Below are positions 804-62,033 of a stretch of 64,000 nucleotides of DNA, in pieces. Position 1 is the first letter of the stretch. The number at the start of each line of letters is the position of its first letter. The notes beneath the pieces are model-generated. The model was not told the origin of the DNA. It saw nothing but the letters and a program-made list of their open reading frames with translations, and searched no databases. This DNA is from a virus (taxonomy: Duplodnaviria; Caudoviricetes): the IMG/VR virus record IMGVR_UViG_3300005937_000267, positions 865-64,864 of that record; one strand, written 5' to 3'. Both the position numbers and the translations under genes were made by a program.

Positions 804-805
804 TC

Positions 806-2979: not shown

Positions 2980-2990
2980 GAGAAGAGATC

Positions 2991-19257: not shown

Positions 19258-19670
19258 TTCCAGTACCGCTTCAGCACGGCTGCGACGTTCGGCGCGACCC
19301 AGCCCGCTGGCTTGATCACGTCGTACCCGTTGCCGTACCGGGACCCCTCCCCACTGGACGGCGCTCGCTGCTTCCGCATGTTCGCCTGGTGGACCTCCTG
19401 CCACACCGCCTCCCACGGGTAGCCGAGGACGTGCGCGGTGCCGAGCACGACGTAGACGAGGTCGACCAGCGCGTCGGCCATCTCGGCCTGGTCTCCGTCC
19501 TCGTACGCGTCCTCGAACTCCTCCAGCTCCTCGCGCATCCGCAGTATCCGCAGCTGCATGATCGACTCGAGCTCCTCGTCCTGGGGAGGCTGCTTGGGTC
19601 CGCCGTCGTGGATCACGCTCGGCAGTCCGAACCTGTGGTGGAACTGTCCCACGTCTCCGAAGTTGGTCAC
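19254..19670 (-). CDS. MazG/PRA-PH-like nucleotide pyrophosphohydrolase
   Basis: MREELEEFEDA...ADALVDLVYVVLG...EVHQANMRK. Confidence 0.85.
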   Translation of the reverse strand: MTNFGDVGQFHHRFGLPSVIHDGGPKQPPQDEELESIMQLRILRMREELEEFEDAYEDGDQAEMADALVDLVYVVLGTAHVLGYPWEAVWQEVHQANMRKQRAPSSGEGSRYGNGYDVIKPAGWVAPNVAAVLKRYWK

Positions 19671-38102: not shown

Positions 38103-38196
38103 TCGCCGTGAGATCTTATGGTTAGGTAGCTCCCGTTAGGCGAAGACATGCCGGCCGTTACTGACGGACGCCAGACGAGCTGAAAGAAGTGGACCC

Positions 38197-38373
38197 GTGG
38201 ACCCGGTCTCGGCAGGTACCGGCGCGATCTTGCCGTGGCCGATCATCGCCGAGGGACTGGCCGAAGATCATCCAGGATGGCTCGAGCCGGGCGAGCTCGG
38301 CGATCGCCAGCCCGGCGACGACGACGACGACGACGACGACCAGCCTCCCGACGATCGCTGGGGCGCGCGGTGA
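38197..38373 (+). CDS. Small acidic protein with poly-Asp
   Basis: GTG start; (GAC)8 tract; stop overlaps next GTG. Confidence 0.45.
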   Translation: MDPVSAGTGAILPWPIIAEGLAEDHPGWLEPGELGDRQPGDDDDDDDDQPPDDRWGAR

Positions 38374-38894
38374 GCACGTGGGGCGACGTCGCCGCCGACC
38401 GCAACCACCGCGACATCGGCGACTATCCGGACGACTTCTACGACGACCGCGGCAGGTGGGACTACGACCGCGACGACTACGACCTCCGGGACCGGGGCGA
38501 CGTCAAGTCCTCGATCTGGGACCGCGACGGGCACGCGCCGTACGACCAGGACTACCAAGATCGGATAGACGAGGAGAAGCGCCGGCAGGCCGAGGAGGAC
38601 GAGGCCAACCGCGACACGGGCTGGTTTGGCGACAAGACCCGCGACGTGCTGGGCGACCCGTGGCGCGGGGCGCAGGGCCGCTACCCGGGAGGACCGGACG
38701 ACCCGTACGGACGGAGATCCCAGAGCCGGGACCGCGTCAAGCGCGGCAGCAGCGTCCGCGTGGATCGCTTCGCCAGGAGCCGGCGCGCCCGCAGGCGCCG
38801 GATGCACCAGGCCGGGTGGTACCAGCCGCGGGACGCGTGGCGGGCCGCCAAGAAGAGCAAGCGGAAGATCACGAAGAGGGGCTTCTGGTTCTGA
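38370..38894 (+). CDS. Low-complexity D/R/Y/W-rich protein
   Basis: DYPDDFYDDRGRWDYDRDDYD acidic/aromatic half, basic C-terminal half. Confidence 0.55.
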   Translation: MSTWGDVAADRNHRDIGDYPDDFYDDRGRWDYDRDDYDLRDRGDVKSSIWDRDGHAPYDQDYQDRIDEEKRRQAEEDEANRDTGWFGDKTRDVLGDPWRGAQGRYPGGPDDPYGRRSQSRDRVKRGSSVRVDRFARSRRARRRRMHQAGWYQPRDAWRAAKKSKRKITKRGFWF

Positions 38895-39457
38895 TGATCG
38901 ACTTGTACCGGGTCGTCAGGTGGCTCGAGCCGAGCGTGGACAAGCAGATCCTGGTGCTCGGCGGCGAGCACAAGATCCTGGAGGTGAAGAAGCACTGGGC
39001 GGCCAGCATCTGGGCGATGCTGCGGCTGGTGGTCGCGGCCGGGCTGTACGTCTGGAACGCCCTCAACCCGGTGGAGTGGGCGTACTGGGTGGTCACCGCA
39101 GTGCTGATCATGGTGATGCTCCAGGCGCTGTGGCACGTCGCCGGCGAGTTCCGGGACCGGTTCGTGATCACCAACCAGCGGATCTTCCGGGTGAACGGCA
39201 TCCTGGGCACGGACCGGGCGAGCATCCCGATCCTGCGCATCCTGGACATCACGACGAAGCACCCGCTGATGGGGCGCATCCTGAACTACGGGCACTTCGT
39301 CTTCGAGTCGGCGGCGCAGATCCAGGGACTGTACGAGATCACGTACGTCCGGGACGTGGACTACCGCGAGCACGTGCTGCGGATGGCGATCCACGGCGAC
39401 GAGATGCACGAGCTCGTGCGCATGAGCGGCGACGACGAGGAGGACGACGGGACGTGA
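38894..39457 (+). CDS. Membrane protein with bacterial PH domain (bPH_2 / YdbS-like)
   Basis: Two TM helices then FVITNQRIF...SIPILRILDIT...GRILNYG. Confidence 0.75.
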   Translation: MIDLYRVVRWLEPSVDKQILVLGGEHKILEVKKHWAASIWAMLRLVVAAGLYVWNALNPVEWAYWVVTAVLIMVMLQALWHVAGEFRDRFVITNQRIFRVNGILGTDRASIPILRILDITTKHPLMGRILNYGHFVFESAAQIQGLYEITYVRDVDYREHVLRMAIHGDEMHELVRMSGDDEEDDGT

Positions 39458-39699
39458 TCGACTGCGTGGTGGTGTTCGTGATCGCGGGCGAGGAGAGGCG
39501 CCTGCCGGGCAAGATCAACGGTCACGGAGGGGCGTTCCTCGACGTCAGCGTGGACCCGACCGCGGTCGTCGTCGACTACCCGCCCAGCCAGATCGTCGCG
39601 GTGCACGTCCCGGACCAGAGCATCCCCGTGACGCGGCTGCTCGGCGCGCAGGCCGGGCCGACCATCCGGCTGATCATGACGGGCGGGCCGTCGCCGTGA
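39454..39699 (+). CDS. Hypothetical protein
   Basis: GTGA overlap, 81 aa. Confidence 0.5.
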   Translation: MIDCVVVFVIAGEERRLPGKINGHGGAFLDVSVDPTAVVVDYPPSQIVAVHVPDQSIPVTRLLGAQAGPTIRLIMTGGPSP

Positions 39700-40073
39700 T
39701 CGAGCTGCTGGGCACGGCGATGGTGACGATGGTCGTCGTCGCCTGGTCTCTGCTCGGCGCGTACGGCCTGCTCCGGCTCCGGTCGGACCTCGCGGCGCGG
39801 AGACCGAGGCCGAGGCCGAGGCCGGCGATCCCTGGCGATCGCGCGTCCCCGTGTCGCGACTGCGGGACGCTGATCATGGTCGAGCAAGAGTCATGGAACT
39901 GGCAGCTGGTCGACGAGCTGAGCTGGACCGAGACCGAGGACGAGTTACGCGGTGATGATCAGATCATCACGACCAAGGGCAAGTGGGAGCTGGACGAGAC
40001 CGCGCAGCGCTGCGACCTCTGCTCCGCGATCAGGCGCGCTGAGCTCGAGTACTACGGGTTCACCCGATCATGA
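39696..40073 (+). CDS. Membrane-anchored CxxC...CxxC protein carrying copied SSB and major-tail peptides
   Basis: TM helix; CRDC and CDLC flank VEQESWNWQ and LSWTETED-ELRGDDQIITTKGK-WEL. Confidence 0.75.
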   Translation: MIELLGTAMVTMVVVAWSLLGAYGLLRLRSDLAARRPRPRPRPAIPGDRASPCRDCGTLIMVEQESWNWQLVDELSWTETEDELRGDDQIITTKGKWELDETAQRCDLCSAIRRAELEYYGFTRS

Positions 40074-41374
40074 CTCGCCGCGTCGGCCCGACGCTGGAGG
40101 GCTCCCTCGCCGAGTGGCAGGAGGGGGAGACCACCCTCAGGGAGCTCGTCGGCGAGAAGGTGCGCCGGTTCTGCTGGGCGACGATCCCGCCGCTCAGCGT
40201 CGCGACGATGATCACCGGGACGATCGGGTGGGCCAAGTACCGGCTCGAGCAGACGATCAGCAGCGAGGAGCTCGCGACGATCATGACGCGAGTTGCGATG
40301 CTCGGCGTGCCGGGTCTCTCGGTGACCGTGGGCGTGCTGCTCATGTACGGCATGCACCTGGCCGAGACCATGCCGCCCATGTTCCTGGAGGAGGTCGCGC
40401 CGCTGGGTCCGAGGCGCTCGCCGGGAGACCTCGAGTCGTGGGAGCACTGGCTGTACCGGGGCGTGCGGGTCGGCCGCTGGCAGAGCCTGGACGGGTCGGG
40501 GAGAGCGGGCGCGATCGCCCGGATCCCGATCATGGACGAGCACGTGTTCGTCGCGGCGCGCACCCGGTGGGGGAAGTCCACCGTGGAGTGGGCGATTCTG
40601 GAGGACCTCGAGGAGGCGATCAAGCAGGGCGTCGTGCGGGTGATCTTGTTCGACCCGAAGAACGGCATGGAGATGGCCGCCGCGGTCAACCTCAAGTACG
40701 TCGCCCAGAGCGACTTCTACTTCGGCGAGGACGTCGGCGAGGTCGACCCTCACACGGGCAAGTGGGAGGGCCAGCTCTACGAGGAGACGTTCGTCAAGCC
40801 GCTCGAGGACCTGGTGCGCGAGATGCGCCGGCGCGCGGACAGGATCAGGTTCAAGGACCGCAGGCACCACGCGAAGCCGGGCGACCCGCACATCATCGTC
40901 ATGGTCGACGAGCTCGCCCAGCTGGTCCGCGAGACCACGCCGACTCCGGTCAAGAACCGGATCACCAACGCGATCTTGACGCTGTGCCACCAGGGCGCGG
41001 CCTGCGGCATCACGGTGATCGGCTGCACGCAGCACCCGAGCATCGAGGAGATCGGCCCGATCCGCCACGGCCTGACGTTCGGGCTGTGCGGCAAGGTCAA
41101 GTCGGCGAAGGCCGTGGACATGGTGCTCGGCGAGGGGAGCCGCCGGCTCGGCTCGAGGGCGGACAAGCTGGACCGGGAGATCACAGGCGTGTGGTACACC
41201 TCGGAGTCCGGGCCGATGGCGCTGCGCGCCCAGCACTCGGGTCCCGAGTTCGGCGAGGACGAGCCCCCGCCGGCCGACCGGCGACCGCCGCCGAGCGAGC
41301 GGGACGAGGAGGCGGCGGACCGGCTGTGGGAGCGCATGCGGTCGCGGCGCGCGGCTGATCGGATGGCGGCGTGA
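40070..41374 (+). CDS. FtsK/SpoIIIE (TraB-like) DNA translocase ATPase
   Basis: Two N-terminal TM helices; ARTRWGKS Walker A, ILFDPKNGME, IIVMVDE Walker B, GAACGITVIGCTQHP. Confidence 0.8.
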   Translation: MTRRVGPTLEGSLAEWQEGETTLRELVGEKVRRFCWATIPPLSVATMITGTIGWAKYRLEQTISSEELATIMTRVAMLGVPGLSVTVGVLLMYGMHLAETMPPMFLEEVAPLGPRRSPGDLESWEHWLYRGVRVGRWQSLDGSGRAGAIARIPIMDEHVFVAARTRWGKSTVEWAILEDLEEAIKQGVVRVILFDPKNGMEMAAAVNLKYVAQSDFYFGEDVGEVDPHTGKWEGQLYEETFVKPLEDLVREMRRRADRIRFKDRRHHAKPGDPHIIVMVDELAQLVRETTPTPVKNRITNAILTLCHQGAACGITVIGCTQHPSIEEIGPIRHGLTFGLCGKVKSAKAVDMVLGEGSRRLGSRADKLDREITGVWYTSESGPMALRAQHSGPEFGEDEPPPADRRPPPSERDEEAADRLWERMRSRRAADRMAA

Positions 41375-41829
41375 GCGCGGGCAGCAAGATCAGAGGGCGC
41401 GAGTACGTCGAGCTGCTCGAGGAGGTCGCGTCCGGCATGCCGCACGAGGAGATCGCGGAGCGCCACGGCCGGGCGTGGGGGACGATCGACAACTTCGCCA
41501 GCCAGCACCGGCGAGAGATCGAGGACCTCAAGGCGGCGCACGCGAGCGCGATCAGCCACCTGTGGATCACGCGCATGGAGCTCAGAGTCAGCGAGGCGAT
41601 GGCCCGGCACGAGGCGCTGACCGAGATGTTCTGGGAGATCATGGAGCCGGGGGGAAGGGGAGACAAGATCATCTCCCAGCCCGACGCGATCAAGCTCAGC
41701 GCGGAGCTGCGCGCGCTCGAGACCCAGGTCGCGGAGGAGTGCGGGCAGCGCCAGACGCGCGCGAAGAACGACGGCGGCCTGCCGGACGCGGTGGTGTGGA
41801 AGATCACGCAGGTGCCCGACCATGGCTGA
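41371..41829 (+). CDS. Terminase small subunit-like HTH protein (second copy)
   Basis: N-terminal HTH (PHEEIAERHGRAWGTIDNF), helical middle, directly upstream of TerL-like gene. Confidence 0.55.
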   Translation: MSAGSKIRGREYVELLEEVASGMPHEEIAERHGRAWGTIDNFASQHRREIEDLKAAHASAISHLWITRMELRVSEAMARHEALTEMFWEIMEPGGRGDKIISQPDAIKLSAELRALETQVAEECGQRQTRAKNDGGLPDAVVWKITQVPDHG

Positions 41830-43132
41830 GCACGAGTACGAGGCGCGCGGCCCGCACAGCAAGATCTTCGGCATGACGGACCGCGAGGTGCTGCTGTCCG
41901 GGCCGGCGAGCACCGGCGCCGACCGGGCGATCATGGAGAAGCTCGCGACGTGCGCCATGACGCACCGGGGCTTCCGCGGGCTGATCGTCCGCAAGGTGGA
42001 GAAGTCGCTGGCTCTCACGGTGATCCCGATCCTGGAGCGCAGGGTGCTCAGGGAGCTGATCGCGAGCCGCGGGGTGAAGTTCTTCAACGCCAGCACCAGG
42101 GAGCCGCAGCGGTACGAGTTCGGCAACGGGTCGGTGATCGTGGTCACCGGCATCGACGACTCGAGGAAGATCGCGGGCAGCGAGTGGGACATGGTCTGCG
42201 TGGTCAACGCGACGGACCTCGACCTGGTGGACTGGGAGGACCTGTCGATGAGCTGCTCCGGCGACGCCATGGGGTACACCCAGCTGATCGCGTGCACGCT
42301 CCCGGACAAGCCCGGACACTGGCTGAACCAGCGCTGCCGGGAGGGTCGGACGATCATGCTCGACTCCCGGCACGAGGACAACCCGGAGATCTACGCGCGG
42401 GCGGACGGGCACCTCAAGATCACGGACCACGGCCGCGTGATCTTGTCCAGGCTCAACGACCTCACCGGCGTGAACCGCTCGAGGAAGGCGCTCGGGCTGT
42501 GGGTGGACGCCGAGGGGATGATCTGGGAGAAGTGGGACCCGGCCATCCATCTGATCAACGACTACCCGCCGCCGATCGACTGGGCGCGGGTGTGGGGCGT
42601 CGACTGGGGCACCAAGCACCCGTGCGCGTGGGGTAACTGGGTGCGCGAGCCCGACGGCCGGATGACCGAGTACCAGGAGATCCTGATGACCGGCTGGACG
42701 GTCGAGCAGCTCGCCGAGACCATCCTGGACGCCACCACTCGGGACGGCCAGCCCAGACCCGAGGCGATCGTGGCGGACCACGACCTCGAGAACATCGCGA
42801 AGCTCGAGAAGATCTTGGCGCGGGAGTGGGGCTTCGAGTACGAGGTCACGCTCGCCAGGAAGGCCGTGAAGGCCGGCATCGACGCGTTCGCGAAGCGGCT
42901 CAAGAACCACGACGTCGCCGTCATGCGCGGAGCTCCGCTCTTCAGGGATCCCGCCCTGCTGGAGATGCAGCGCCCGACGTGCCTGGCCGAGCAGATCCCG
43001 TCGTACGTCTGGGCGGACGGCGGCAGGGACCAGCCGCTGAAGAGGGACGACGACTCCTGCGACCAGGCGCGGTACGTGATCATGTACGAGGACGCGGCCA
43101 CGGGTCGCTGGGTGAGGATGCGGGGAAGATGA
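41822..43132 (+). CDS. PBSX-type terminase large subunit paralog with degenerate ATPase motifs
   Basis: EVLLSGPASTGAD (GTGKS expected), LIVRK, FGNGSVI, VCVVNAT (xxE expected), SRHEDNP, GVDWG, DDSCDQARY. Confidence 0.8.
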   Translation: MAEHEYEARGPHSKIFGMTDREVLLSGPASTGADRAIMEKLATCAMTHRGFRGLIVRKVEKSLALTVIPILERRVLRELIASRGVKFFNASTREPQRYEFGNGSVIVVTGIDDSRKIAGSEWDMVCVVNATDLDLVDWEDLSMSCSGDAMGYTQLIACTLPDKPGHWLNQRCREGRTIMLDSRHEDNPEIYARADGHLKITDHGRVILSRLNDLTGVNRSRKALGLWVDAEGMIWEKWDPAIHLINDYPPPIDWARVWGVDWGTKHPCAWGNWVREPDGRMTEYQEILMTGWTVEQLAETILDATTRDGQPRPEAIVADHDLENIAKLEKILAREWGFEYEVTLARKAVKAGIDAFAKRLKNHDVAVMRGAPLFRDPALLEMQRPTCLAEQIPSYVWADGGRDQPLKRDDDSCDQARYVIMYEDAATGRWVRMRGR

Positions 43133-43208
43133 GGGACCGGGATGTCGACAGCTCGCCCGGTCTCCCGGTAGGATGGGGTGAGGACCGGCAGACGAGAGGA
43201 AGACGATC

Positions 43209-43571
43209 ATGGCGGGGAGCACGACCAACGGTCAGGAGGACTTCGCTGCCGTGCTGCAGGAGCGCGGCGAGCACATGCGCAGGCCCGGCAGGCGGTACGT
43301 GACCAGAGACCACCCGCAGATGGGGCTGCGGGGCGAGCTCAGAGAGATCGAGGACGTTCAGATGGTACTGGGCGATCGTCCGGTGGAGGACAGGGGCAGC
43401 GGTGCCAGGGCGGATGCCATACCGGCCCGCCCTGGCGTCGCGCACGACGCCCGGGGGTTCGGCGCGCCGTTCCAAGTCTGGGCGATCGACCCCGAGACGA
43501 TCGAGGGGATGGAGATCGTCGAGCGGGCGTGGCCGATAGTCGATCGCGACCCGCGAGGGAGGCTCCCGTGA
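43209..43571 (+). CDS. Hypothetical protein
   Basis: ATG after GAGAGGAAG RBS. Confidence 0.5.
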   Translation: MAGSTTNGQEDFAAVLQERGEHMRRPGRRYVTRDHPQMGLRGELREIEDVQMVLGDRPVEDRGSGARADAIPARPGVAHDARGFGAPFQVWAIDPETIEGMEIVERAWPIVDRDPRGRLP

Positions 43572-43894: not shown

Positions 43895-44383
43895 GTGGCC
43901 GTTCCCAGCTTCAGCGAGATGTACGCCTCCGTGCAGGAGGGCCGGCGCGCGCTGACCCGTCCCCAGCAGTTCGCGCGAGGCTTGATCACGACGGACGACC
44001 TGGACGACGAGGAGCTCGCCCGGCAGCAGGTGCGCGAGGACGACGGGTCGTTCTCCCGGACGCGTCCCGCCATGCCGACCGACAGGATCAGCGAGATGCA
44101 GCGGGCGCTGCTGGCTCGCGGGAACGACGTGTTCAAGCGGGCGTTCATCAAGGCGACCGAGACGATGATGGAGATCTGCACAGATCCGAACGTCGAGGCG
44201 AGGACCCGGCTGGCGGCCGCGAAGATGATCGTCGACAAGGTGGCCCCGACCGCCACGGTGATCGAGATCAAGCCGAGCGACCCGGTGATCGAGTTCTTCC
44301 GCGGGATCACGGAAGACGGCGCGACGGAGACGATCAGTGGTACGATCGTCCCGGACGTGCCCGAGATCACCACAGGAGACTAG
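43895..44383 (+). CDS. terS: Terminase small subunit
   Basis: DDLDDEELAR...DDGSF motif of actinophage TerS; upstream of intact TerL. Confidence 0.6.
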   Translation: MAVPSFSEMYASVQEGRRALTRPQQFARGLITTDDLDDEELARQQVREDDGSFSRTRPAMPTDRISEMQRALLARGNDVFKRAFIKATETMMEICTDPNVEARTRLAAAKMIVDKVAPTATVIEIKPSDPVIEFFRGITEDGATETISGTIVPDVPEITTGD

Positions 44384-44584
44384 ATGGCCGGCGAGTTCGT
44401 ACCCGATCCCCCTCACAGTCAAGATCAAGAGGCGAAGAAGCTGCTCCGTCGCAACGCGGGAGGCCGCGGCTCGGCGACTAAGCCCGCCCCCCAGCTCACC
44501 AAGTCCAACGGGCGCGTGGGCGCCAGGGTCGGCGGCAGGCGGGTGGCCTCCGGCGCGACCACCGTGCGTGGCGGCGCTTGGTAG
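44384..44584 (+). CDS. Small basic hypothetical protein
   Basis: Fills gap between terS and terL. Confidence 0.4.
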   Translation: MAGEFVPDPPHSQDQEAKKLLRRNAGGRGSATKPAPQLTKSNGRVGARVGGRRVASGATTVRGGAW

Positions 44585-46052
44585 CCGCGCGACGCTCCTC
44601 CCCCCGCGGGTCGTAACCGAGGACTTCGCGTACCGCAAGATCAACTGGCGACCGCACGAGGGCCAGCGTCGCGTGATCGACGCGCGGGTGCGCAACCGGG
44701 TGCTGGCGGCCGGCAGGCGGTTCGGCAAGAGCGAGATCGGCGGCACCAAGCTCGTCCACGAGGCGATGAACACCCGGCTCGCGGTCTCGATGCTGGAGGA
44801 CCTCGGCAAGCGCCGCGAGTTCTGGATCATCGGGCCGACGTACACCGACTCCGAGAAGGAGTTCCGGGTCATGTACAACTCCCTCTCCAAGATCGGGATC
44901 GCGGACTACTTCGACCGGCCCGGGACGTACAACGACCCCATCGGCGGCAACATGCACGCCAGCCTGTGGGGAGGCCGGTTCCAGGTCCACGCCAAGAGCG
45001 CCCAGCACCCCGAGAGCCTCGTCGGAGAGGGTCTGTCGGGGGCGATCCTAGCGGAGGCCGCGAAGCTCAAGGAGACCGTCTACAGCAGGTTCATCCGGCC
45101 CACTCTCGCCGACTTCAACGGCTGGTGCCTGATGACCTCGACCCCGGAGGGCAAGAACTGGTTCTATGAGATGTGGCGCCGCGGCCAGGACCCAAAATAC
45201 GCCGACTGGTGGAGCCTCAGAGCCCCCGCCTGGCTGAACCCCTACGTCTACCCCGGCGGAGGGTCCTTCGACGCGGTCGAGCGGTACCGGGAGCTGTTCC
45301 TCGCGGGGGCGCCCCGCGATCACGTCGAGATAGACGCCGAGATCGCGGCACTCGTCGAGGACCTGACCGACGAGGCTTTTGACCAAGAGATCGGAGCCGA
45401 CTTCACTACCTTCGTCGGCAGGGTCTTCAAGGAGTTCGACGAAGAGATCCACGTCACTGACCTCGAGTACGTGCCGGGGTGGCCCACGTACGCCGCGGTG
45501 GACTACGGCTTCACCAATCCTAACGTGTGGTTGCTCATCCAGGAGGACCCTCACGCCGAGATCGTCAACGTGCTCGGCGAGGTGTACCAGCCCGGGCTGG
45601 CTCCGGACGAGTTCGCGGACGAGATCATCTCCCGGCGACTGTGCCCCGGAGACGTGATCGCGTTCTACCCGGACCCGGCGTCCCCGGGGGACACCGCGAT
45701 CCTGGAGAAGAAGCTCAGGATCCGGCACCGGGGGAGCACCGGCGGGGAGATCAAGTTCCGGATCGACGCCATCCGCAAGTGGATGCGGTGGAAGCATCCC
45801 CACCTGCCGCACGACCACGAGGAGAACCGTCCCAAGCTCCAGTTCGACAGGTCGTGCGTGCGCACGATCATGGACATGCTGAACTACCGGTACGCCCAGA
45901 AGAGGAGCGAGACCACCGGCGAGCCGGAGAATCCGATGAAGAGAGACGATCACGGCCCGGAGGCTCTCGGACGATTCTTCGCGGGAAGGTTCGGAACCCC
46001 GGATAGGGTAGCCCGCAGGCCGAGACAGAGGAGGGCGTCGATCAGTGGTTGA
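44568..46052 (+). CDS. terL: Terminase large subunit
   Basis: AAGRRFGKS Walker A, ILAEAA Walker B, TSTPEG, AVDYGFTNP, DDHGPEAL; followed by portal. Confidence 0.92.
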   Translation: MAALGSRATLLPPRVVTEDFAYRKINWRPHEGQRRVIDARVRNRVLAAGRRFGKSEIGGTKLVHEAMNTRLAVSMLEDLGKRREFWIIGPTYTDSEKEFRVMYNSLSKIGIADYFDRPGTYNDPIGGNMHASLWGGRFQVHAKSAQHPESLVGEGLSGAILAEAAKLKETVYSRFIRPTLADFNGWCLMTSTPEGKNWFYEMWRRGQDPKYADWWSLRAPAWLNPYVYPGGGSFDAVERYRELFLAGAPRDHVEIDAEIAALVEDLTDEAFDQEIGADFTTFVGRVFKEFDEEIHVTDLEYVPGWPTYAAVDYGFTNPNVWLLIQEDPHAEIVNVLGEVYQPGLAPDEFADEIISRRLCPGDVIAFYPDPASPGDTAILEKKLRIRHRGSTGGEIKFRIDAIRKWMRWKHPHLPHDHEENRPKLQFDRSCVRTIMDMLNYRYAQKRSETTGEPENPMKRDDHGPEALGRFFAGRFGTPDRVARRPRQRRASISG

Positions 46053-47550
46053 TCTTTCTCCCTACGCGACCGCGAAGCCGCTGTTCGGGGTGCTGCCGAC
46101 GTGGCTGTCCGAGGCCGACGCGGCGCGCGTCGAGGCCTACGCTCTGTACGAGGGCATGTACCGCAACGTTCCGGACGCCTACAAGATCATCCAGCGGGGC
46201 AGCGAGTCGAACCCGATCTACGTGCCGTGCGCGAAGACGATCGTCGAGGCGACCAACCGCTACCTCGCGAAGGACTGGACGTTCGTCGCGGATCCCAGAC
46301 TTGGCACTGATAGCGAGCGGGCGATGATCCAGCAGGTGCTCACCCCGCTGTTCCGTCGCGAGCGGGTGTGGTCCAAGTTCGCCAGCCAGAAGCGCTACGG
46401 CCTGATCAGGGGAGACACGTGCTGGCACATCATCGCCGATCCCGATCTCCCGCAGGGCAAGCGGATATCGATCATGGAGCTCGACCCGGCCTCGTACTTT
46501 CCGATCTACGACCCGGAGGACGACACCAAGCGCGTCGGCTGTCACATCGTAGAGATCAGGACGAACGACAAGAACGAGTCCATGATCAAGAGACAGACCT
46601 ACCGCAAGGACCCAGCCAGCGGGACGATCACCCACGAGGCCACGTGGTGGGAGCTCGGCGCCTGGGACGACCGGAACATGGATCCCAAGGATCTGAAGAA
46701 GGCGAAGAACCCCCCCGTTCCCGCCGTACCGGAGCATCCGCTGCCGCCGGGGATCACAGCTCTGCCGGTCTACCACATCAGGAACGACCCAGCTCCGAGA
46801 GATCAATTCGGAGTCTCCATCCTGGCCGGGCTCGAGCGGATCGCCGCCGCGGTCTCGCAGGTAATCAGCGACCAAGAGATCGAGCTGGCCCTCTCGGGGC
46901 TGGGTCTGTACGTCACTACCAGCGGACCGCCGGTGGACGAGAGCGGGAACGAGACGAGGTGGAAGATCGGTCCGGGCTACGTCGCCGAGATCGACCCCGA
47001 GGCTGACTGGAAGCGCGTCAGCGGCGTGGCCAGCGTGGATCCCAACCTCGATCACGCTCGGTACCTGGAGCAGAAGATCCAGCAGGCGGCGGGCGTGCCC
47101 GACATCGCCGTCGGCGAGGTGGACGTCTCGGTCGCCGAGTCGGGGATCTCGCTGGCGTTCAAGATGTCTCCGATCTTGGCCAGTAACTCCGAGCGCGAGG
47201 GCGAGATGCTCGGCGTCTACGACCAGATGCTGTACGACGTCTCGCGCGGCTGGCTGCCGGCGTACGAGTCGATAAACTTCGGCGAGGCGGCCACCGCGGT
47301 GTCGATCGTCAGCGACCCTATGCCGATCAACCGAGAGGCTTTCCTGAAGGAGATCGGCGTCATGATCGACAAGGGCATCATGAGCGTCGAGTACGCCCGC
47401 GTGTTGATCAGCGAGAAGCTCGGCCTCGAGTTCCCGGCGACCATGGGCGAGCAGGTCGTCGCCGAGCAGACGGCTCTGGCCGCCGCGCGCAACGCTGACC
47501 CGTTCGAGGCCAGGATCGCGAGGGAGCTGACCGGTGTCGAAGCGGCGTAA
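46045..47550 (+). CDS. Portal protein
   Basis: 501 aa after TerL; GLIRGD, PVYHIRN, GVPDIAVG, SGISL portal-like motifs. Confidence 0.85.
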   Translation: MVDLSPYATAKPLFGVLPTWLSEADAARVEAYALYEGMYRNVPDAYKIIQRGSESNPIYVPCAKTIVEATNRYLAKDWTFVADPRLGTDSERAMIQQVLTPLFRRERVWSKFASQKRYGLIRGDTCWHIIADPDLPQGKRISIMELDPASYFPIYDPEDDTKRVGCHIVEIRTNDKNESMIKRQTYRKDPASGTITHEATWWELGAWDDRNMDPKDLKKAKNPPVPAVPEHPLPPGITALPVYHIRNDPAPRDQFGVSILAGLERIAAAVSQVISDQEIELALSGLGLYVTTSGPPVDESGNETRWKIGPGYVAEIDPEADWKRVSGVASVDPNLDHARYLEQKIQQAAGVPDIAVGEVDVSVAESGISLAFKMSPILASNSEREGEMLGVYDQMLYDVSRGWLPAYESINFGEAATAVSIVSDPMPINREAFLKEIGVMIDKGIMSVEYARVLISEKLGLEFPATMGEQVVAEQTALAAARNADPFEARIARELTGVEAA

Positions 47551-48037
47551 GAAGCGGAGCGTCCGCGACTCACACGTGTCCAAGGATCATCTGGACGCGA
47601 TCTTGGTCTTCATCAGCAAGATGACAGTCATGATGGGACTGCCGTCGTACCGGATCCTGATCATGGCGAAGCCAGCCGACAAGGGCTCCGTCGCGGAGAT
47701 CATCACCACGGACGACCGCTACGTAGCGCAGCTCTACCTCTGCAAGGACTGGATGAGCCGGTCGGACGACGAGCGCCGGGACACGATCGTGCACGAGGTG
47801 CTCCACCTGTGGCACCGGCAGCTGTCGGACTGGCTCCGAGAAGACGTCCACGGTGCCACCGGCGTGCACGAGTATGCCAGGCTCGAGCGGCAGTTCCATA
47901 ACATCACGGAGCTGATGGTGGACGGCATCGCGATGATCTTGGCCGACACGCACTTGATCAAGGAGGAGTGGGAGGAGGCCCACGGTGGCGAGTCCTACTC
48001 CGCTGACCGAGTACCTGAGGGTGCAGCGGTCGACTGA
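47534..48037 (+). CDS. HExxH metallopeptidase-like protein
   Basis: DTIVHEVLHLWH...E motif; in head module. Confidence 0.6.
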   Translation: MSKRRKKRSVRDSHVSKDHLDAILVFISKMTVMMGLPSYRILIMAKPADKGSVAEIITTDDRYVAQLYLCKDWMSRSDDERRDTIVHEVLHLWHRQLSDWLREDVHGATGVHEYARLERQFHNITELMVDGIAMILADTHLIKEEWEEAHGGESYSADRVPEGAAVD

Positions 48038-48860
48038 GCTGGCGATCTTGGCGATGCTGCGCCACGCAGAGCGCAGCGTCGGACCGGAGCTGACGATGAT
48101 CGAGGGGATGGGTGACCTCAGTGTCTCGCAGAGGATTAAGAGGCTTCAGCTCGCCCACTCGCTGGCGGCGATTCACCAGACGATTGATCACCACTACGCG
48201 ATGGTTGGCGGCGAGATACGAGGGCGCCGGTCGCAGGTCGCGGAGGTAGCCGGTCGGTCGATGGCCGACGCAGCGAAGATCTTCAAGACCGCCGGGCTCA
48301 GCGACCGCGAGGTCCGCACCGCCCAGGCGTCCATGATCAGGTCCGCGCAGACCGGCGTCGAGGCGGCGATGGCCAGGGCGCAGGGCAGCTCGTACGTGCC
48401 GCTGTCCCGCCGGGTCTACAAGACGGCGGCGCTCTCCCGGGGACAGGTGTCGCGCATGATCAACGATCACCTGGCCCACGGGTCGTCGGCCAGCGAGCTC
48501 GCCAGGGACGTGCGCCGGTTCGTGCGCCCGGACGCCCGCGGCGGCATGCGGTACGCCAGCACGAGGCTGGCCAGGACCGAGCTGAACAACGCCTTCCACG
48601 CGGTGCAGAGAGACCAGGCGATCAAGAGCCCGTTCATCGAGAGGCTGCTGTGGCAGCTGTCCGGGAGCCACCCGCGCCCTGACGAGTGCAACGACTACGA
48701 GGGCCGAGAGTTCGCGCCCGGCGATCTTCCCGCCAGGCCGCATCCGAACTGCTTCTGCTATACGACTCCGGTGACCGCGTCTCGCGATCAGTTCATCGAG
48801 AACTATAGAGCTGGGAAGTACGACGAGTACTTGGGCGATCTTGGCGTGGAAGCTGCCTGA
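47985..48860 (+). CDS. MuF-like minor capsid protein
   Basis: RLARTELNNA...WQLSGSH...C...PHPNCFC. Confidence 0.8.
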   Translation: MASPTPLTEYLRVQRSTELAILAMLRHAERSVGPELTMIEGMGDLSVSQRIKRLQLAHSLAAIHQTIDHHYAMVGGEIRGRRSQVAEVAGRSMADAAKIFKTAGLSDREVRTAQASMIRSAQTGVEAAMARAQGSSYVPLSRRVYKTAALSRGQVSRMINDHLAHGSSASELARDVRRFVRPDARGGMRYASTRLARTELNNAFHAVQRDQAIKSPFIERLLWQLSGSHPRPDECNDYEGREFAPGDLPARPHPNCFCYTTPVTASRDQFIENYRAGKYDEYLGDLGVEAA

Positions 48861-49656: not shown

Positions 49657-50040
49657 GTGGCTGCGCGCTATGACAAGTACGACCCCATCTCTGGCGGATT
49701 CCGAGCCCCACTGAACGCTGACTGGCTTGACGCCGACGTCGGCATCCCGTTCGCGGTAGGGCTGAACGCCAGCGGCAAGGTCGTGAAGGGCGCCGGGACC
49801 ACCGGCGTCAGGGCAGTCCTCGTGGTCGACGCCATCGGCAAGAAGGCGAACGACATCGTCGACTGCATGACTGCCGGGGAGATCGTCGACGTCACGTCGC
49901 CGGCTCTCGCCGCCGGCACTAAGTACGCTGGTGTAGCGGCCACGGGAGTGATCGCGGCGACGGGCGTCGGGTCCGAGGTCGGATTCACTGTCGAGGCGAC
50001 TCGACTGATCGTTAGGACTAGCGGGGTGGCGACGACATGA
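49657..50040 (+). CDS. Capsid decoration/cement protein
   Basis: 127 aa, G/A/V-rich, ARYDKYDPISGGFRAPL, upstream of MCP. Confidence 0.7.
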   Translation: MAARYDKYDPISGGFRAPLNADWLDADVGIPFAVGLNASGKVVKGAGTTGVRAVLVVDAIGKKANDIVDCMTAGEIVDVTSPALAAGTKYAGVAATGVIAATGVGSEVGFTVEATRLIVRTSGVATT

Positions 50041-51266
50041 TCACGCGCAATCCATTCGGTTCCTCGATCTACGGTGTTCCGCCGACCGCGCTAGATCTGA
50101 ATCTCGAGAAGATCAAGCTTCTCCGTTCGCTCGGTCTGATCCCGCAGATCGCCGGCGGCGCGTACGGCTACAACGCGGCCGCCGACATCCTCGGTCAGAC
50201 CGCCGACGGTCGCGATCTCAATGAGATCTGGGCCGAGTTCCAAGCCACGCTGGCGATCCAGAACGAGTCGCGCCAGCGGCTCATCGATCTTCTGACGTTC
50301 CCCGTCACGAACATCATCGAGGACGTCCCGCAGTTCGGCGGCGGCGACTTCGAGGAGATGTCCGAGTACGGCGTCCCGAAGTCGATCAGGCCCGTCGGGT
50401 CCGTGCTGCAGCTCGGCTACACGTTCAAGTGGTACGACCTGGCGGCGAGGTTCACGTGGCTGTTCCTGGCGGACGCCAGCGCAGCGCAGGTGGACGCCGT
50501 GCACCAGGCGGCGCTCGACGCCGACAACCGGCTCGTCTTCCTAGAGGTCATGCGATCGCTGTTCCGGAACACCAACCGGACGACCAACATCAGGAACCAG
50601 AACTACAACGTGTACACGTTCTGGAACGGCGACGGCAACGTGCCGCCGTCGTACAAGAACACCACGTTCACCGGTACGCACACCCACTTCCGCAACTCGG
50701 GCGCGGCGACCATCGACTCTGGTGATCTCGAGGAGATGATCGACGATCTCAAGTCGCACGGCTACTCGCAGGAGAACGGCACCACGCTCTACGCCTTGAC
50801 CAACGAGGCTCAGGCGAACGTGATCAGGACGTTCCGACAGGGGCAGACGAACAACAACGGCGCCGTGGCGCGCTGGGACTTCATCCCGGCGGCCAACCAG
50901 CCGGCCTTCATCGTGCCGACCACGATGGCGGTAGTCGGCGGCCAGGTGCCGGGCACGTTCCGCGGCTTCAACGTGGTCGGGAACTACGGTCCCGCGGTGA
51001 TCGTCGAGGAGTCCTACATCCCGGCTGGCTACGTCGTGCTGCTGGGATCCGGCGGCGAGGCGAACCTGCAGAACCCCATCGGGTTCCGCGAGCACGCCAA
51101 CGCCGCTCTCCGCGGGCTCCGGCTCGTGCAGGACAAGCAGTCGGACTACCCGCTGATCGACTCGTACTACGTGCGAGGCTTCGGCACCGGAGTGCGGCAG
51201 CGGGGCGCGGGCATGGTGATGAAGATCAGCGCCGGCGCCTACTCGGTCCCGACTCAGTACGCATAG
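50037..51266 (+). CDS. Major capsid protein
   Basis: 409 aa after scaffold; FEEMSEYGVP, QLGYTFKWYD, GFGTGVRQRGAG. Confidence 0.88.
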   Translation: MITRNPFGSSIYGVPPTALDLNLEKIKLLRSLGLIPQIAGGAYGYNAAADILGQTADGRDLNEIWAEFQATLAIQNESRQRLIDLLTFPVTNIIEDVPQFGGGDFEEMSEYGVPKSIRPVGSVLQLGYTFKWYDLAARFTWLFLADASAAQVDAVHQAALDADNRLVFLEVMRSLFRNTNRTTNIRNQNYNVYTFWNGDGNVPPSYKNTTFTGTHTHFRNSGAATIDSGDLEEMIDDLKSHGYSQENGTTLYALTNEAQANVIRTFRQGQTNNNGAVARWDFIPAANQPAFIVPTTMAVVGGQVPGTFRGFNVVGNYGPAVIVEESYIPAGYVVLLGSGGEANLQNPIGFREHANAALRGLRLVQDKQSDYPLIDSYYVRGFGTGVRQRGAGMVMKISAGAYSVPTQYA

Positions 51267-57764: not shown

Positions 57765-60700
57765 ATGGCCAATTATGATCTTGGTACTGCTCGGGGCGTC
57801 ATTGAGCTTGACTACAAGGGTGACGGTCCTAAGCAAGCTCAGCGAGATATGGACGACCTCACTAAGAGGTCGCGCAGCGCGGGGGAAGCTTTCAGCCAAG
57901 CGGGCGGCTCCATGCAGAAAGCCGGAGCCGCCATCGGCGCCGGCGTCGCCGTAGCCGCCAAGAGCGCCGCTGACTTCGAGGCGCGCATGTCCGCCGTCAA
58001 GGCGGTATCTGGGGCCAGCGCCCAGGAGATGGAGCAGCTCACCCAGAAGGCTCTACAGCTCGGCAAGGAGACGAAGTTCTCGGCGTCTGAGGGCGCTCAG
58101 GCGATCGAGGAGCTGGTCAAGGCAGGCATCGCCGTACCCGACGTGATGAACGGCGCAGCGGACGCCACAGTGGCGCTGGCGGCGGCCGGGGAGCTTGAGC
58201 TTCCGAGGGCAGCTGAGATCGCTGCTAACGCGATGAACCAGTTCAAGATCAGCGCCCAGGACATGCCACACATCGCCGACGTCTTGGCAGGCGCGGCCAA
58301 CGCGTCAGCGGTGAGCGTCCAAGATCTCGGAGAGTCGCTTAACTACGTCGGCCCGGTGGCGCACTCGGCGGGAGTCAGCTTCGACGACACCGCCGCCGCG
58401 CTCGCGATCTTGGGCAACAACGGCATCAAGGGATCGGCTGCTGGAACGGCGCTGCGCGGGGTCCTGCTGGGTCTGACCCCGACCACCGACAAGCAGAAGA
58501 AAGCCTTCAAAGAACTTGGACTGGTCACCAAGGACGGCGCTAACCTCTTCTACGATGCCGAGGGCAGGGTCAAGCCGCTCAACGAAGTCATCCAGATCTT
58601 GCACGACAAGACCAAGGGTCTGTCGGCGCAAGAGAAGGCGACCTTCTACGAGGGCGCCTTCGGTCGCAACGCCATGACCGCGGCGACGATCTTGGGTGGC
58701 GAGACTTCTGAGTCGTTCCTCAAGATGGCCGCCTCGATGAGAGAAGTCTCGGCCGCCGACGTCGCCGCCGCTCGACTAGACAACTTCAAAGGATCTCTGG
58801 AGCAGCTGAAGGGCTCTCTCGAGACTTTCATGATCATCGCGGGCACGCCGCTGATCAACTCGTTCCGCGGGATCGTCGACGGCATCACCGAGTTCATCAA
58901 CAAGCTTCTGGAGATCGATCCTCGGATAGTCGAGGTGGGGGCTAAGATCGCGGTCTGGTCAGCAGGGATCTTGGTCGCAGTTGGAACGATCATGAAGATC
59001 GTCGGCGCGATTGCTCGGTTCGTCGAGGCGCTACGAACGATCATGAGCATCGCTGCCGTGTCGACCGTGATCAGAGGTATCGGGGGCGCGCTGGCAGCGC
59101 TGGCCACCGGTCCGTGGGGGATCATCATCGCGGCAGTCGCCGCTCTGGTCACCGCATTCATCGGGCTGTACACCCACAACGAGAAGTTCAAAGCTTTCAT
59201 CGACGGAATCGTTCGGGTGATCAAGGAAGTCGCGGTCAAAGCTTTTGATCAATTAGTTCGCGGAGTCAAGGCGTTCTGGGAAGTCCTGAAAGGCGAGGGA
59301 ACTACTACCACGGGCGGCTTCGTCGGCTTCATGGAGCAGCTCGCGGTGTTCGTCAAACCCGTGGTAGACGCGCTCAAGGAGCTGTGGGAGGTCTGGAAGA
59401 CCACCATCTGGCCGATCTTGAAAGACGCAGCGTCTCAGGTCTGGCAGGCGCTCAAGCAGGCATGGGTGGAGATGTCTCCGGCGCTCAAAGAGCTATGGGC
59501 TGCGCTCAAGGAGCTGTGGACCGCGCTAGAGCCGATCCGGCAGCCGTTGTTCGACATTCTCGCAGTCGTTCTCAAGCTGGTCGCTGCCTTCTTGCTGTGG
59601 TCGGCCAAGATGAACATCGAGACGATCACCGCGCTGATCAAGCTATCTGCCGCGATCATGGAAAAGATGGCGCCAGCTATCAAGATCGCCGCCGACTTGG
59701 TCTCATTCATGATCAGCAACTTCGCCAACTTCGTGACCGCCATCGCTGGCGTGATCACCAAGCTCGTGGAGTTCGCGACTGCTGTCGTGCAGCACGTCAC
59801 CAGGGGCAGGGACGCGGCCTCCACCGGCATCACCTCGATCATCGGATTCTTCACGAACCTCGCCGCCAAGATCAGTGAGTTCGTCACCACTGCGCTTCAG
59901 AAATGGACCAATTTCTGGACCCAGTTCCGGGACAAAGCAACGCAGATCTGGGAGTCGGTCAAGACCGCGGTGCAGACTGGTTTCACCGCTGTCGGAACTG
60001 TCCTCACCACGGTCGGCAACACGATCAAGACTGCTTGGAATACTTTCTGGGAAGGGCTCAAGGGGATCGTCAGCACTGTCTGGACCACGATCAAGACCGC
60101 GGTGCAGACCGGGATCGATAGCGTTCGCACAGTGATCGCCACCGTATCTGCGGCGATCAAGGCGGCTTGGGACTCTTTCTGGAACCTATTCGGTCCTCCG
60201 GTGCGCGCTGCCTGGGAGTTAGTCAAATCGGTAGTGCAGCTCGGCATCGCTGCCGTGAAGCTCGTGATCGTCACCGTGCAGACCGAGATCAAGCAAGCTT
60301 GGGACGCTTTCTGGAACGGGTTGAAGACCACTCTGGGTCCGGTCTGGGAGCAGATCAAGTCCACGGTGAGCGCCGCCGTGACCGCCGTGAAGACCACCGT
60401 CACCTCAGCCTGGACCGCCATCCAGTCGGCTACCACGGCTGCTTGGAACAGCCTGAAGACCAACACCACCACGGTCTGGAACTCGCTCAAGGACGTGATC
60501 AACTCCGCGCTCAATACCGCTAAGGCCACGGTGCAGGCCGCGACCACCGCGATCAAGTCTGCCGTCGATACTGCGTGGAACGCCATCAAGTCTGCTACTA
60601 GCACCGCGTGGAACGCCATCAAGAGCGCCGTAGAGGGTCCGCTGAACGCGCTCAAGGGCACCGTGCAGTCAGCGGTCGGCGCCGTACGGTCCGCCGTCGA

Positions 60701-62033
60701 GGGTGCTTGGAATCAGATCCGCAGTACGACTCAGTCAGTCTGGAACTCGATCAAGAGCGCTGTCTCTAGCGCAGTCAACGCGATCAAGAGCGCCGTGACT
60801 CCGGGACTGAACTCGGTGCGAGACACCGTCAAGCAGGCGTGGGAAGCGGTGAAGACCGCTACCACCGAAGCCTGGGGTAAGCTCTCCTCGATCGTCAAGA
60901 CCGAAGTCGACAAGATCACCGGTATCGTGAGTAAGATCAAAGATACCGTGGTGAACGCCATGAAGGGCGCCGGTCAGTGGTTGCTGCAGGCCGGTAAAGA
61001 TCTCGTGCAGGGCTTCATCGACGGCATCACCTCCAAGCTCGGAGAAGCCAAAGCCAAGGTGGACGAGCTGACCGCCACGGTGAAGCGCGCCACCGAGGAG
61101 AAGCTCAAGCTAGGCTCCCCGTCCAAGATCTTCTTCCAATACGGGTCGTTCACCGTACAGGGCTACATCGACGGAATCGACAGTCTGCTCGCCAGCGCCA
61201 AGACCAAGATCGAGGAGCTAGCGAAGATCGTCTTACAGGCCACTAAGGAGAAGCTCAAGCTCGGCTCACCGTCAAAGTTCTTCTTCCAGTTCGGCGAGTT
61301 CACGGTCCAGGGGTACATCGACGGCATCGACAGCCTGCTGGGCTCGGCGCGCGCCAAGCTCGAGGAGTTCGTCGGGATCGTCAAGCACGCGGTCGAAGAG
61401 AAGCTGAAGCTCGGCTCGCCCTCCAAGATCTTCTTCAACTTCGGCGAAGACACCATTAGGGGGTACATCGACGGGCTGGAGAAGTACATCCCTCAGGCGC
61501 AGCAGATCATGCAAGAGCTAGGCGCGGTATGGCCGCAGGTCGCCGACACCGTCAAGAGCTCCATGGACTCGATCATCAACAGCCTGCGAAACGGGGACAT
61601 CAAAGGCGCCGTCACCCAGGTCATCGACTCGCTGAAGCCGCTGTCTAGCACGCTGCGGAGTATGAACATCCAAGATCAGTTCAACGACATCGCGGACAAG
61701 CTCGGCGGATCTGCCCGGCAGATCAGAGGTCAGCTACAGCCGCTGACGCAGGCGCTCAGAGTCAGCCTCAGTGAGCTAGAGGCCAAGCAGATCGCCCAGC
61801 AGATGGCGCCGCTAGCCAAGAGCATGCAGGGCAAGTCGATAGGCGACGTGATCGGCATGGTGCAGCAGCGATTCCCGCAGATCAACATCCCACCAGTCCA
61901 GGTACCACCCACGCAATTCCCACAAAAGATGATCTTGAAGGTCGGTGATCGGGAGTTCGAAGCCTACGTCGATGATCGCGCCGACGCACTACTAGGTAAA
62001 GCGGCCGCGCTGCTGTCGCGAGGGAGGAAGTGA
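57765..62033 (+). CDS. Tape measure protein
   Basis: 1422 aa; FEARMSAVKAV, TKFSASE, GIKGSAAGT, LDNFKGSLEQL; Trp-periodic repeats. Confidence 0.95.
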   Translation: MANYDLGTARGVIELDYKGDGPKQAQRDMDDLTKRSRSAGEAFSQAGGSMQKAGAAIGAGVAVAAKSAADFEARMSAVKAVSGASAQEMEQLTQKALQLGKETKFSASEGAQAIEELVKAGIAVPDVMNGAADATVALAAAGELELPRAAEIAANAMNQFKISAQDMPHIADVLAGAANASAVSVQDLGESLNYVGPVAHSAGVSFDDTAAALAILGNNGIKGSAAGTALRGVLLGLTPTTDKQKKAFKELGLVTKDGANLFYDAEGRVKPLNEVIQILHDKTKGLSAQEKATFYEGAFGRNAMTAATILGGETSESFLKMAASMREVSAADVAAARLDNFKGSLEQLKGSLETFMIIAGTPLINSFRGIVDGITEFINKLLEIDPRIVEVGAKIAVWSAGILVAVGTIMKIVGAIARFVEALRTIMSIAAVSTVIRGIGGALAALATGPWGIIIAAVAALVTAFIGLYTHNEKFKAFIDGIVRVIKEVAVKAFDQLVRGVKAFWEVLKGEGTTTTGGFVGFMEQLAVFVKPVVDALKELWEVWKTTIWPILKDAASQVWQALKQAWVEMSPALKELWAALKELWTALEPIRQPLFDILAVVLKLVAAFLLWSAKMNIETITALIKLSAAIMEKMAPAIKIAADLVSFMISNFANFVTAIAGVITKLVEFATAVVQHVTRGRDAASTGITSIIGFFTNLAAKISEFVTTALQKWTNFWTQFRDKATQIWESVKTAVQTGFTAVGTVLTTVGNTIKTAWNTFWEGLKGIVSTVWTTIKTAVQTGIDSVRTVIATVSAAIKAAWDSFWNLFGPPVRAAWELVKSVVQLGIAAVKLVIVTVQTEIKQAWDAFWNGLKTTLGPVWEQIKSTVSAAVTAVKTTVTSAWTAIQSATTAAWNSLKTNTTTVWNSLKDVINSALNTAKATVQAATTAIKSAVDTAWNAIKSATSTAWNAIKSAVEGPLNALKGTVQSAVGAVRSAVEGAWNQIRSTTQSVWNSIKSAVSSAVNAIKSAVTPGLNSVRDTVKQAWEAVKTATTEAWGKLSSIVKTEVDKITGIVSKIKDTVVNAMKGAGQWLLQAGKDLVQGFIDGITSKLGEAKAKVDELTATVKRATEEKLKLGSPSKIFFQYGSFTVQGYIDGIDSLLASAKTKIEELAKIVLQATKEKLKLGSPSKFFFQFGEFTVQGYIDGIDSLLGSARAKLEEFVGIVKHAVEEKLKLGSPSKIFFNFGEDTIRGYIDGLEKYIPQAQQIMQELGAVWPQVADTVKSSMDSIINSLRNGDIKGAVTQVIDSLKPLSSTLRSMNIQDQFNDIADKLGGSARQIRGQLQPLTQALRVSLSELEAKQIAQQMAPLAKSMQGKSIGDVIGMVQQRFPQINIPPVQVPPTQFPQKMILKVGDREFEAYVDDRADALLGKAAALLSRGRK
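61010..61490 (+). repeat. 150-bp (50-aa) tandem repeat in tape measure
   Basis: KLKLGSPSK starts at 61101, 61251, 61401; G[FY]IDG at 61012, 61162, 61312, 61462. Confidence 0.9.

Follow-up and report, generated by a model that had tools for sequence, protein, structure and literature searches.

Why would a phage that has a complete set of packaging genes also keep a second, full-length large terminase subunit (TerL) whose motor site has been lost, directly behind the gene of a putative DNA pump? The question is raised by a three-gene locus in a 64,000-nucleotide stretch of viral DNA (Duplodnaviria; Caudoviricetes), hereafter the window, which spans positions 865 to 64,864 of the IMG/VR virus record IMGVR_UViG_3300005937_000267 and covers nearly all of that 64.9-kb record, rated complete by CheckV. 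The trio encodes an FtsK-superfamily ATPase (P0001, the pump), a helix-turn-helix (HTH) protein (P0002) and the dead TerL (P0003). A preliminary description, made from the sequence alone, had proposed that the pump stands in for the TerL motor in a new DNA-transfer machine. The evidence presented here strongly supports a different history, in which the small (TerS) and large terminase genes of the trio are the original terminase of this lineage, displaced by an imported module, with the ATPase of the large subunit lost stepwise under selection. Whether the trio is also a real, selection-maintained operon in which the displaced terminase acts with a Tra-like pump as an accessory DNA-handling module is a further claim, to which we would give about an even chance on the sequence comparisons that follow.

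P0003 is a TerL along its whole length. It shares 36-41% identity, over 96-98% of its length, with the TerLs of the plaque-forming phages P1312, Dagobah and Mischief19, and its relatives carry the Terminase_3 domain (PF04466). It had been read in the preliminary description as a TerL with a dead ATPase that retains the acidic residues of the nuclease, and both halves of that statement are borne out by an alignment of the family (n=106). The motif GPAGTGKS has become GPASTGAD, (Q/D)EA has become VNA and TNP has become TLP; Ala replaces the P-loop Lys, Asp the adjoining Ser, Asn the catalytic Glu and Leu the C-motif Asn, and substitutions of the same class occur in nine relatives. Across the alignment, the P-loop Lys, catalytic Glu and C-motif Asn are intact in 95 of the 106 members; the other 11 are without the Glu and the Asn, and nine of these are also without the Lys. 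Dead and active TerLs alike share the nuclease residues D261, D319/H320/D321 and D414 without exception, and D410 almost without exception. P0003 can be described as a full-length TerL derivative that retains only its nuclease site and is held by selection, with nuclease activity predicted from the conserved residues.

The loss of the ATPase catalytic residues, with a working terminase next door, is what would be expected of a decaying pseudogene left by replacement of the packaging module. Such decay is contradicted by the conservation of the P0003 clade. Its homologues comprise at least 10 diverged copies (48-56% identity), all of them intact and without stop or frameshift; 91 alignment columns are invariant in the clade, nuclease residues included, and the pseudo-ATPase half is conserved as much as the nuclease half (55% vs 56%). 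The ratio of nonsynonymous to synonymous substitution rates (dN/dS), whose values are rough with dS near saturation, stands at 0.22-0.39 for the dead TerL, about equal to the pump (0.23-0.38), and at 0.07-0.13 for the canonical TerL and portal, so that the pace of the module is about three times that of the core genes. The pump and the dead TerL have similar dN and the same pattern of closest genomes; for the canonical TerL and portal this pattern is flat. We consider the pseudogene reading scarcely credible.

How the motor site came to be lost can be traced through two deeper pump lineages (about 47% identity), L127 and L209, in which an HTH and a TerL gene also lie directly 3' of the pump. 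L127, which the identical L294 extends, reads pump, HTH, bPH_2 (a membrane-protein gene, 1392-1994, between the HTH and TerL genes), TerL, portal, head protease and major capsid; all three ATPase motifs of this TerL are intact, and the HTH-TerL pair is the canonical terminase of that phage. The L209 TerL keeps Walker A and has Glu changed to Ala and Asn to Gln, while P0008, from the crown clade, keeps Walker A and has lost both Glu and Asn. The branching of the pump tree (L127, L209, crown) follows the order of motif loss, from intact through loss of Glu to loss of Lys. In a reduced TerL tree, from which the partial L209 TerL was left out for its very long branch, the L127 TerL groups with the dead clade (support 86), and a larger TerL tree gives the dead clade a long stem (1.09 changes per column). 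It is because the L127 array places an intact TerL before portal, protease and capsid that we take the TerL of the trio to be the original terminase. In the clade of the window, we conclude, a second, unrelated TerS-TerL-portal-capsid module took over capsid packaging. The catalytic Glu and the C-motif Asn of the old TerL were the first to go, followed by its P-loop Lys, and the whole fold, the nuclease site and the TerS partner were kept.

The module that took over, which the preliminary description of the locus does not mention, lies directly downstream of the trio. Its large subunit, P0004, is 77-86% identical among relatives; it matches P0003 at 23% identity over 73 nuclease residues only and is otherwise unrelated to it, and the portal and head genes follow P0004, not P0003. 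Since a full TerS-TerL-portal-capsid module is present downstream of the trio, capsid packaging is independent of the trio. In the trio-bearing relatives the canonical TerS-TerL-portal genes are found 4-5 kb beyond the trio. The longest open reading frame (ORF) of P0004 begins 47 bp inside terS, its first ~90 codons are rich in Pro, Ser and Arg, and relatives align from residue ~78-83; the true start is probably near 44600. Between the dead TerL and the canonical terS, the window holds a single 120-aa gene (43209-43571), and L006, L009 and L010 hold a variable block of small genes (4-5 kb) that includes dATP/dGTP pyrophosphohydrolase-like and YAcAr-like genes.

The association of the three genes was followed through the related contigs by means of the gene-neighbourhood search that the preliminary description had put forward as a check, and the trio proved to co-occur in all those with enough flank as well as in the two deeper lineages. 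The order pump, HTH, dead TerL is found in every such relative (L006, L007, L008/L011, L009, L010/L012 and L013/L208) and in L125, L126 shows the HTH gene followed by the dead TerL, and synteny is kept in L006-L013, L125, L127 and L209. Viewed from the terminase side, motif-lost TerLs lie beside a pump gene in 8 of the 8 cases with enough context, out of 11 in total (P0008, P0010 and P0014 were left out of this count because their flanks were not covered). By comparison, none of 153 viral loci with matches to the TerL family has a pump or bPH_2 gene within 5-8 kb, and all 80 of the TerLs checked there are intact. We found no description of a pump-TerS-dead-TerL operon in the literature.

Within the window the genes are tightly packed. 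The earlier reading of three genes with overlaps of 4-8 bp agrees with the ORF coordinates; counting the small gene upstream of the pump (P0043), which overlaps it by 4 bp, the successive junctions read ATGA, GTGA and ATGGCTGA, with overlaps of 4, 4 and 8 bp, the last between the HTH and dead TerL genes. The GC content at third codon positions is 0.95-0.97 in the trio. Further upstream lies the bPH_2 gene, whose start is uncertain within the frame 38189-39457. Homologues of bPH_2 stand immediately 5' of the pump in L006, L008, L009, L010 and L208, and the C-terminal motif of P0043 is also found 5' of the pump in L007, L008, L010, L011 and L208. In L006 the zinc-ribbon protein and the pump are called as a single 534-aa chain (P0040, 7816-9420) whose C-terminus is frameshift-like; this fusion may be an assembly error. 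A lone sigma-70-like promoter match in the 35.4-44.5 kb interval, a match to consensus only, falls at 43145-43174, right after the stop codon of the dead TerL, and the trio may be the end of one transcription unit.

The label of small terminase for P0002 draws on architecture and context, and is offered as a probable one. The structure model (mean predicted local distance difference test, pLDDT, of 87) has an N-terminal HTH (residues 9-45), a helical hairpin (69-123) and an extended, conserved C-terminal tail, and a profile search retrieved 248 representatives of 130-200 aa. In 21 of 80 viral loci, a member of this family is encoded 5' of an intact TerL on the same strand, and L127 has one 5' of its intact TerL as well. 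The earlier designation of an HTH TerS-like protein thus finds support in its position, in the HTH and helical-hairpin model and in relatives upstream of intact TerLs. Direct comparison with known small terminases returned little: Foldseek against the Sf6 and G20c TerS gave a non-significant E of 0.6, VIA against G20c TerS did not rise above noise (Z of 7.2 over 112 residues), and hhalign against the upstream genes of the isolated relatives gave a probability of 1% from a mixed and probably poor alignment. A pairwise comparison with Dagobah gp4 reached an E of 4e-5, and only two of 60 family members matched TerS PHROGs. Pairwise dN/dS for P0002 rises to ~1 in comparisons with the window, a fast divergence that would fit a changing DNA specificity.

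P0001 is a member of the FtsK/SpoIIIE/HerA superfamily, in its FtsK-like branch. It matches phrog_1358 ('FtsK/SpoIIIE-like') at 2.9e-16, and a profile of its family finds FtsK motor domains (2.6e-11) and TcpA, a coupling protein of conjugation (1.4e-10). The best Foldseek matches are FtsK, EssC/EccC and TcpA, with the ATPase core alone used from a structure model of mean pLDDT 56; the single-sequence Pfam score is under the cut-off (16.8 vs 24 bits). As described at the outset, this is an FtsK ATPase with intact Walker A and B: the residues of Walker A (GKST), Walker B (DE) and the sensor Q are the same in all 15 homologues compared. The transmembrane anchor that was also attributed to it has moderate support, since residues 71-98 form a strong hydrophobic stretch, preceded by a weaker one, and some homologues fall below threshold. 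Overall, a hydrophobic region (~30-100) is followed by the ATPase core (~150-390) and a short tail; beyond the core there are only ~42 residues, acidic, of low complexity and with one predicted helix, and a winged helix is absent.

The affinities of the pump point to conjugative transfer proteins. A hidden Markov model of the phage-pump domain scores 95-134 bits against FtsK/SpoIIIE-domain proteins of 478-582 aa in actinomycete genomes, compared with 27-31 bits against chromosomal FtsK and at most 32 bits against EccC. Homologues of the Rep, Int or DUF2637 protein of pMR2, an actinomycete integrative and conjugative element (AICE) of Micromonospora, are present at 72 of the 80 top-scoring cellular loci; a TerS or TerL gene was found in none of these 80 AICE loci. 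A FastTree phylogeny rooted on FtsK joins the phage proteins in a single clade (support 97) whose sister is AICE Tra, so that the phylogeny against TraB and cell-division FtsK for which the preliminary description had called places the pump with AICE/plasmid transfer proteins and not with FtsK. The gene itself is set in a virus record with capsid, tail, lysis and replication genes, and not in an element with rep, int and spd. No close homologue was found in isolated phages at E<=1e-5, and relaxed thresholds gave only matches of ~26%. A Listeria match is a chromosomal FtsK and was set aside as irrelevant. Only weak, scattered repeats were seen between 35.4 and 44.4 kb, where neither a clt-like array of 8-bp repeats nor pac/cos-like repeats were found.

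The features of the window are collected in the following table.

Features of the window, in order of position (coordinates are those of the window)
Feature	Position	Strand	Evidence or remark
Tail genes	0.07-3.6 kb (69-3611)		
Endolysin	4633-5883		
Replication block: primase-helicase, PolA, helicase, exonuclease, DNA methyltransferase, gene resembling single-stranded DNA-binding protein (SSB-like)	7.6-35.5 kb	minus	
Small-gene operon, trio at its end	from 36.5 kb	plus	
Membrane protein, two hydrophobic helices and bacterial pleckstrin homology (PH) domain (bPH_2)	38894-39457	+	PF03703 4.1e-08, above cut-off
Small protein P0043, N-terminal hydrophobic helix and CxxC...CxxC zinc ribbon	39696-40073	+	translation; hydrophobic stretch 1-28
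FtsK-superfamily ATPase P0001 (pump), AICE/plasmid Tra type	40070-41374	+	phrog_1358, profiles, tree
HTH protein P0002, probable member of the small-terminase family accompanying the P0003 TerL family	41371-41829	+	pLDDT 87 model, gene context
Full-length TerL paralogue P0003, ATPase residues lost, nuclease acidic residues kept	41822-43132	+	TerL alignment
Canonical small terminase P0005	43895-44383	+	phrog_10899 2.7e-17; 63-70% identical in all relatives
Canonical large terminase P0004, Walker A GRRFGKSE	44337-46052	+	phrog_2 4.4e-44; PF03237
Portal	46045-47550	+	phrog_64 2.7e-35
Head-morphogenesis protein	47985-48860		phrog_17987 3.5e-42
Major capsid protein	50037-51266		phrog_3990 3.9e-134
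1422-aa ORF, probably tape measure	57765-62033		

The contig is circularly permuted with respect to the isolated relatives: the 1422-aa ORF and the tail genes cross the right end and resume at the left end, where they are followed by the endolysin. With the permutation undone, the trio would sit near the physical left end, directly ahead of the packaging genes. No integrase was seen among the genes scanned in the virus record, and the virus is probably a lytic actinobacterial siphovirus. The host is taken to be an actinobacterium because the relatives of the capsid protein belong to Gordonia, Mycobacterium and Microbacterium phages; identity is ~52-54% to Gordonia phage capsids, those of Mycobacterium and Microbacterium phages being more distant. 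A gene resembling the C-terminal domain of the RNA polymerase alpha subunit was also considered as an indicator of host and proved uninformative, being ~52-58% identical in the listed actinomycete matches (401 genomes searched). The heptamer GATCTTG occurs in 131 copies on both strands of the window (positions 1-64000; for instance at 1237, 40642, 42439 and 58406), where shuffled sequences are expected to hold 7.4 and at most held 16. A role as a polar, KOPS-like guide motif was rejected, there being no obvious strand polarity, and there is no palindromic pairing either. A DNA methyltransferase gene is located at 17860-19416, and GATCTTG may be a modification or recognition motif.

In the reading of its function that we prefer, the old TerS/TerL pair of the trio would persist through working with the Tra-like pump next to it and with the small membrane proteins encoded upstream, as an accessory DNA-handling module that would sit at the membrane: P0002 would select the DNA with its HTH, the P0003 nuclease would produce a double-strand end, and translocation would fall to the hexameric pump, itself without a DNA-recognition domain. 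Such cooperation is suggested by adjacency that is unbroken over deep divergence, by the translational coupling of the genes, and by the rates and closest-genome pattern that the pump and dead TerL share. Several points weigh against it. Operon inertia alone can preserve a gene order in which stops and starts overlap, and in L127 the pump adjoins a working terminase, which means that adjacency alone does not imply replacement of a motor. P0002 evolves very fast, its homologues being 35-40% identical where the canonical TerL is 85% identical (L006-L013). The trees and rates have limits of their own, since the larger TerL tree does not resolve its backbone, the branches of the pump tree made with FastTree are long, and the near-saturation of dS noted above affects every dN/dS comparison.

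The proposal with which the locus was first described goes further: the pump would replace the dead motor, TerS would recognise phage DNA, the TerL nuclease would cut it and the pump would drive it through a membrane or cross-wall, allowing virion-free spread like that of TraB. TraB and the Spd proteins are described in PMC4447253 as mediating double-stranded DNA transfer and intramycelial spread. The nearest cellular relatives of the pump are indeed Tra proteins of the AICE/plasmid (pMR2) type, by the bit scores and gene contexts given above, most of the hosts concerned are mycelial actinomycetes, the layout of the small upstream membrane-protein genes recalls that of tra-spd, and the parts are complementary in offering recognition, cutting and pumping. 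Against this, the closest capsid relatives infect Gordonia, Mycobacterium and Microbacterium and a mycelial host is not established, the 35.4-44.4 kb region has no clt-like array of 8-bp repeats, and the pump is without the C-terminal winged helix that defines clt recognition by TraB. The need for such a motor is also reduced in a phage with a full canonical terminase and capsid module, and the basal-lineage pump already stood beside a working canonical terminase; since the L127 pump adjoined an intact TerL, displacement of the original terminase explains the dead ATPase at least as well. We regard motor replacement as quite unlikely, and are similarly doubtful that the recognition and cutting parts of a retired terminase, coupled to a conjugation-type FtsK pump in the membrane, would give the phage another way, independent of capsids, to pass its genome or chosen DNA between cells or hyphal compartments.

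It is also conceivable that the neighbours act independently, the pump having an accessory role of its own and the TerS/TerL pair having been co-opted as a site- or structure-specific nuclease for replication or concatemers, or as a binder or sponge for immune sensors. Many actinophages carry FtsK-like genes that have no terminase partner, and TerL is directly targeted by the Avs2 and Upx sensors, which ATPase-like terminase paralogues can engage (PMC13601566). An arrangement of independent neighbours is harder to reconcile with an HTH and a TerL gene directly 3' of every pump with enough flank, down to 47% pump identity, and with the dN level and closest-genome pattern that the pump and dead TerL share, unlike the flat pattern of canonical TerL and portal; we judge independence unlikely, without thinking it far-fetched. 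A weapon against competitors, or a device for superinfection exclusion, would have a membrane complex recognise and cut the DNA of competing phages or mobile elements that employ a related terminase or pac system, or the dead TerL poison a rival packaging motor. The fast-evolving HTH protein, with its dN/dS of up to ~1, would suit an arms race over specificity, the module evolves ~3x faster than core genes, and the pump core resembles the defence-associated FtsK-like components mad8 (4.2e-10) and SspH (1e-3). These hits are the whole of the PADLOC result, which consists of single-domain similarity to the two components and matches no complete known defence system; membership in such a system was accordingly rejected. 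With a phage that appears lytic, with no integrase among the genes scanned, and a basal-lineage TerS/TerL pair that is simply the packaging enzyme, we hold this last explanation to be very unlikely. An accessory module built on the displaced terminase and its pump, at the even chance stated at the beginning, is the reading with which we proceed to a comparison with known systems.

The closest parallel to the pump is offered by the Tra/TraB proteins of actinomycete plasmids and AICEs, such as pMR2 of Micromonospora rosaria, which share with P0001 a single FtsK-type core with intact Walker A and B, a length of ~430-580 residues and a hydrophobic N-terminal region. Core identity is just 28-35%, however, and P0001 differs from them in having no C-terminal winged helix and no clt-like repeats nearby (35.4-44.4 kb), and in being a viral gene beside terminase genes, not rep, int or spd. 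It is, to our knowledge, an open question how a ring-shaped Tra pump takes hold of a DNA end when actinomycetes conjugate; here a Tra-like pump without a DNA-reading domain is tied to a TerS/TerL pair across deep divergence, a concrete three-protein system in which one can ask whether terminase parts can feed another class of motor and whether a phage can move DNA without capsids. If the two were indeed coupled, a retired terminase and its pump would constitute a natural hybrid of viral packaging and actinomycete double-stranded DNA conjugation. Phage-borne FtsK-superfamily ATPases have also been recorded in actinophages (the Mycobacterium cluster with Omega, Optimus and Thibault, and several Streptomyces phages). 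Their identity to P0001 is ~26% over half of the protein, and in the records listed their genes are on the opposite strand, close to the far end of genomes of 106-115 kb. Papers on Streptomyces phages mention FtsK-like genes only as noteworthy and uncharacterised; these genes are widespread in actinophages, and we know of no function assigned to them by anyone.

On the terminase side, the Terminase_3 TerLs of Thermobifida phage P1312 and of the Streptomyces phages Dagobah and Mischief19 resemble P0003 in their full-length match, their nuclease motifs and the TerS family upstream. P0003 is set apart from them by the replacement of the Walker A Lys and Ser, the catalytic Glu and the C-motif Asn, by the lack of a portal gene next to it and by its long stem. 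The stepwise decay of the motor site after a second terminase arrived amounts to a natural experiment in the subfunctionalisation of packaging enzymes. The inactive terminase-ATPase paralogues, T4 vs.8 and the 'truncated large terminases' of jumbo phages, resemble P0003 as surplus genes of terminase origin that selection retains next to a functional terminase (PMC13601566). Those copies, however, consist of the ATPase part alone and have no nuclease, and the Walker motifs of vs.8 are preserved, whereas P0003 is full-length, has an intact nuclease site and a lost ATPase site, and has kept its own TerS and a pump. Even if the three genes were independent of one another, the case would still document, next to these ATPase-only fragments, a full-length, nuclease-only TerL derivative maintained by selection.

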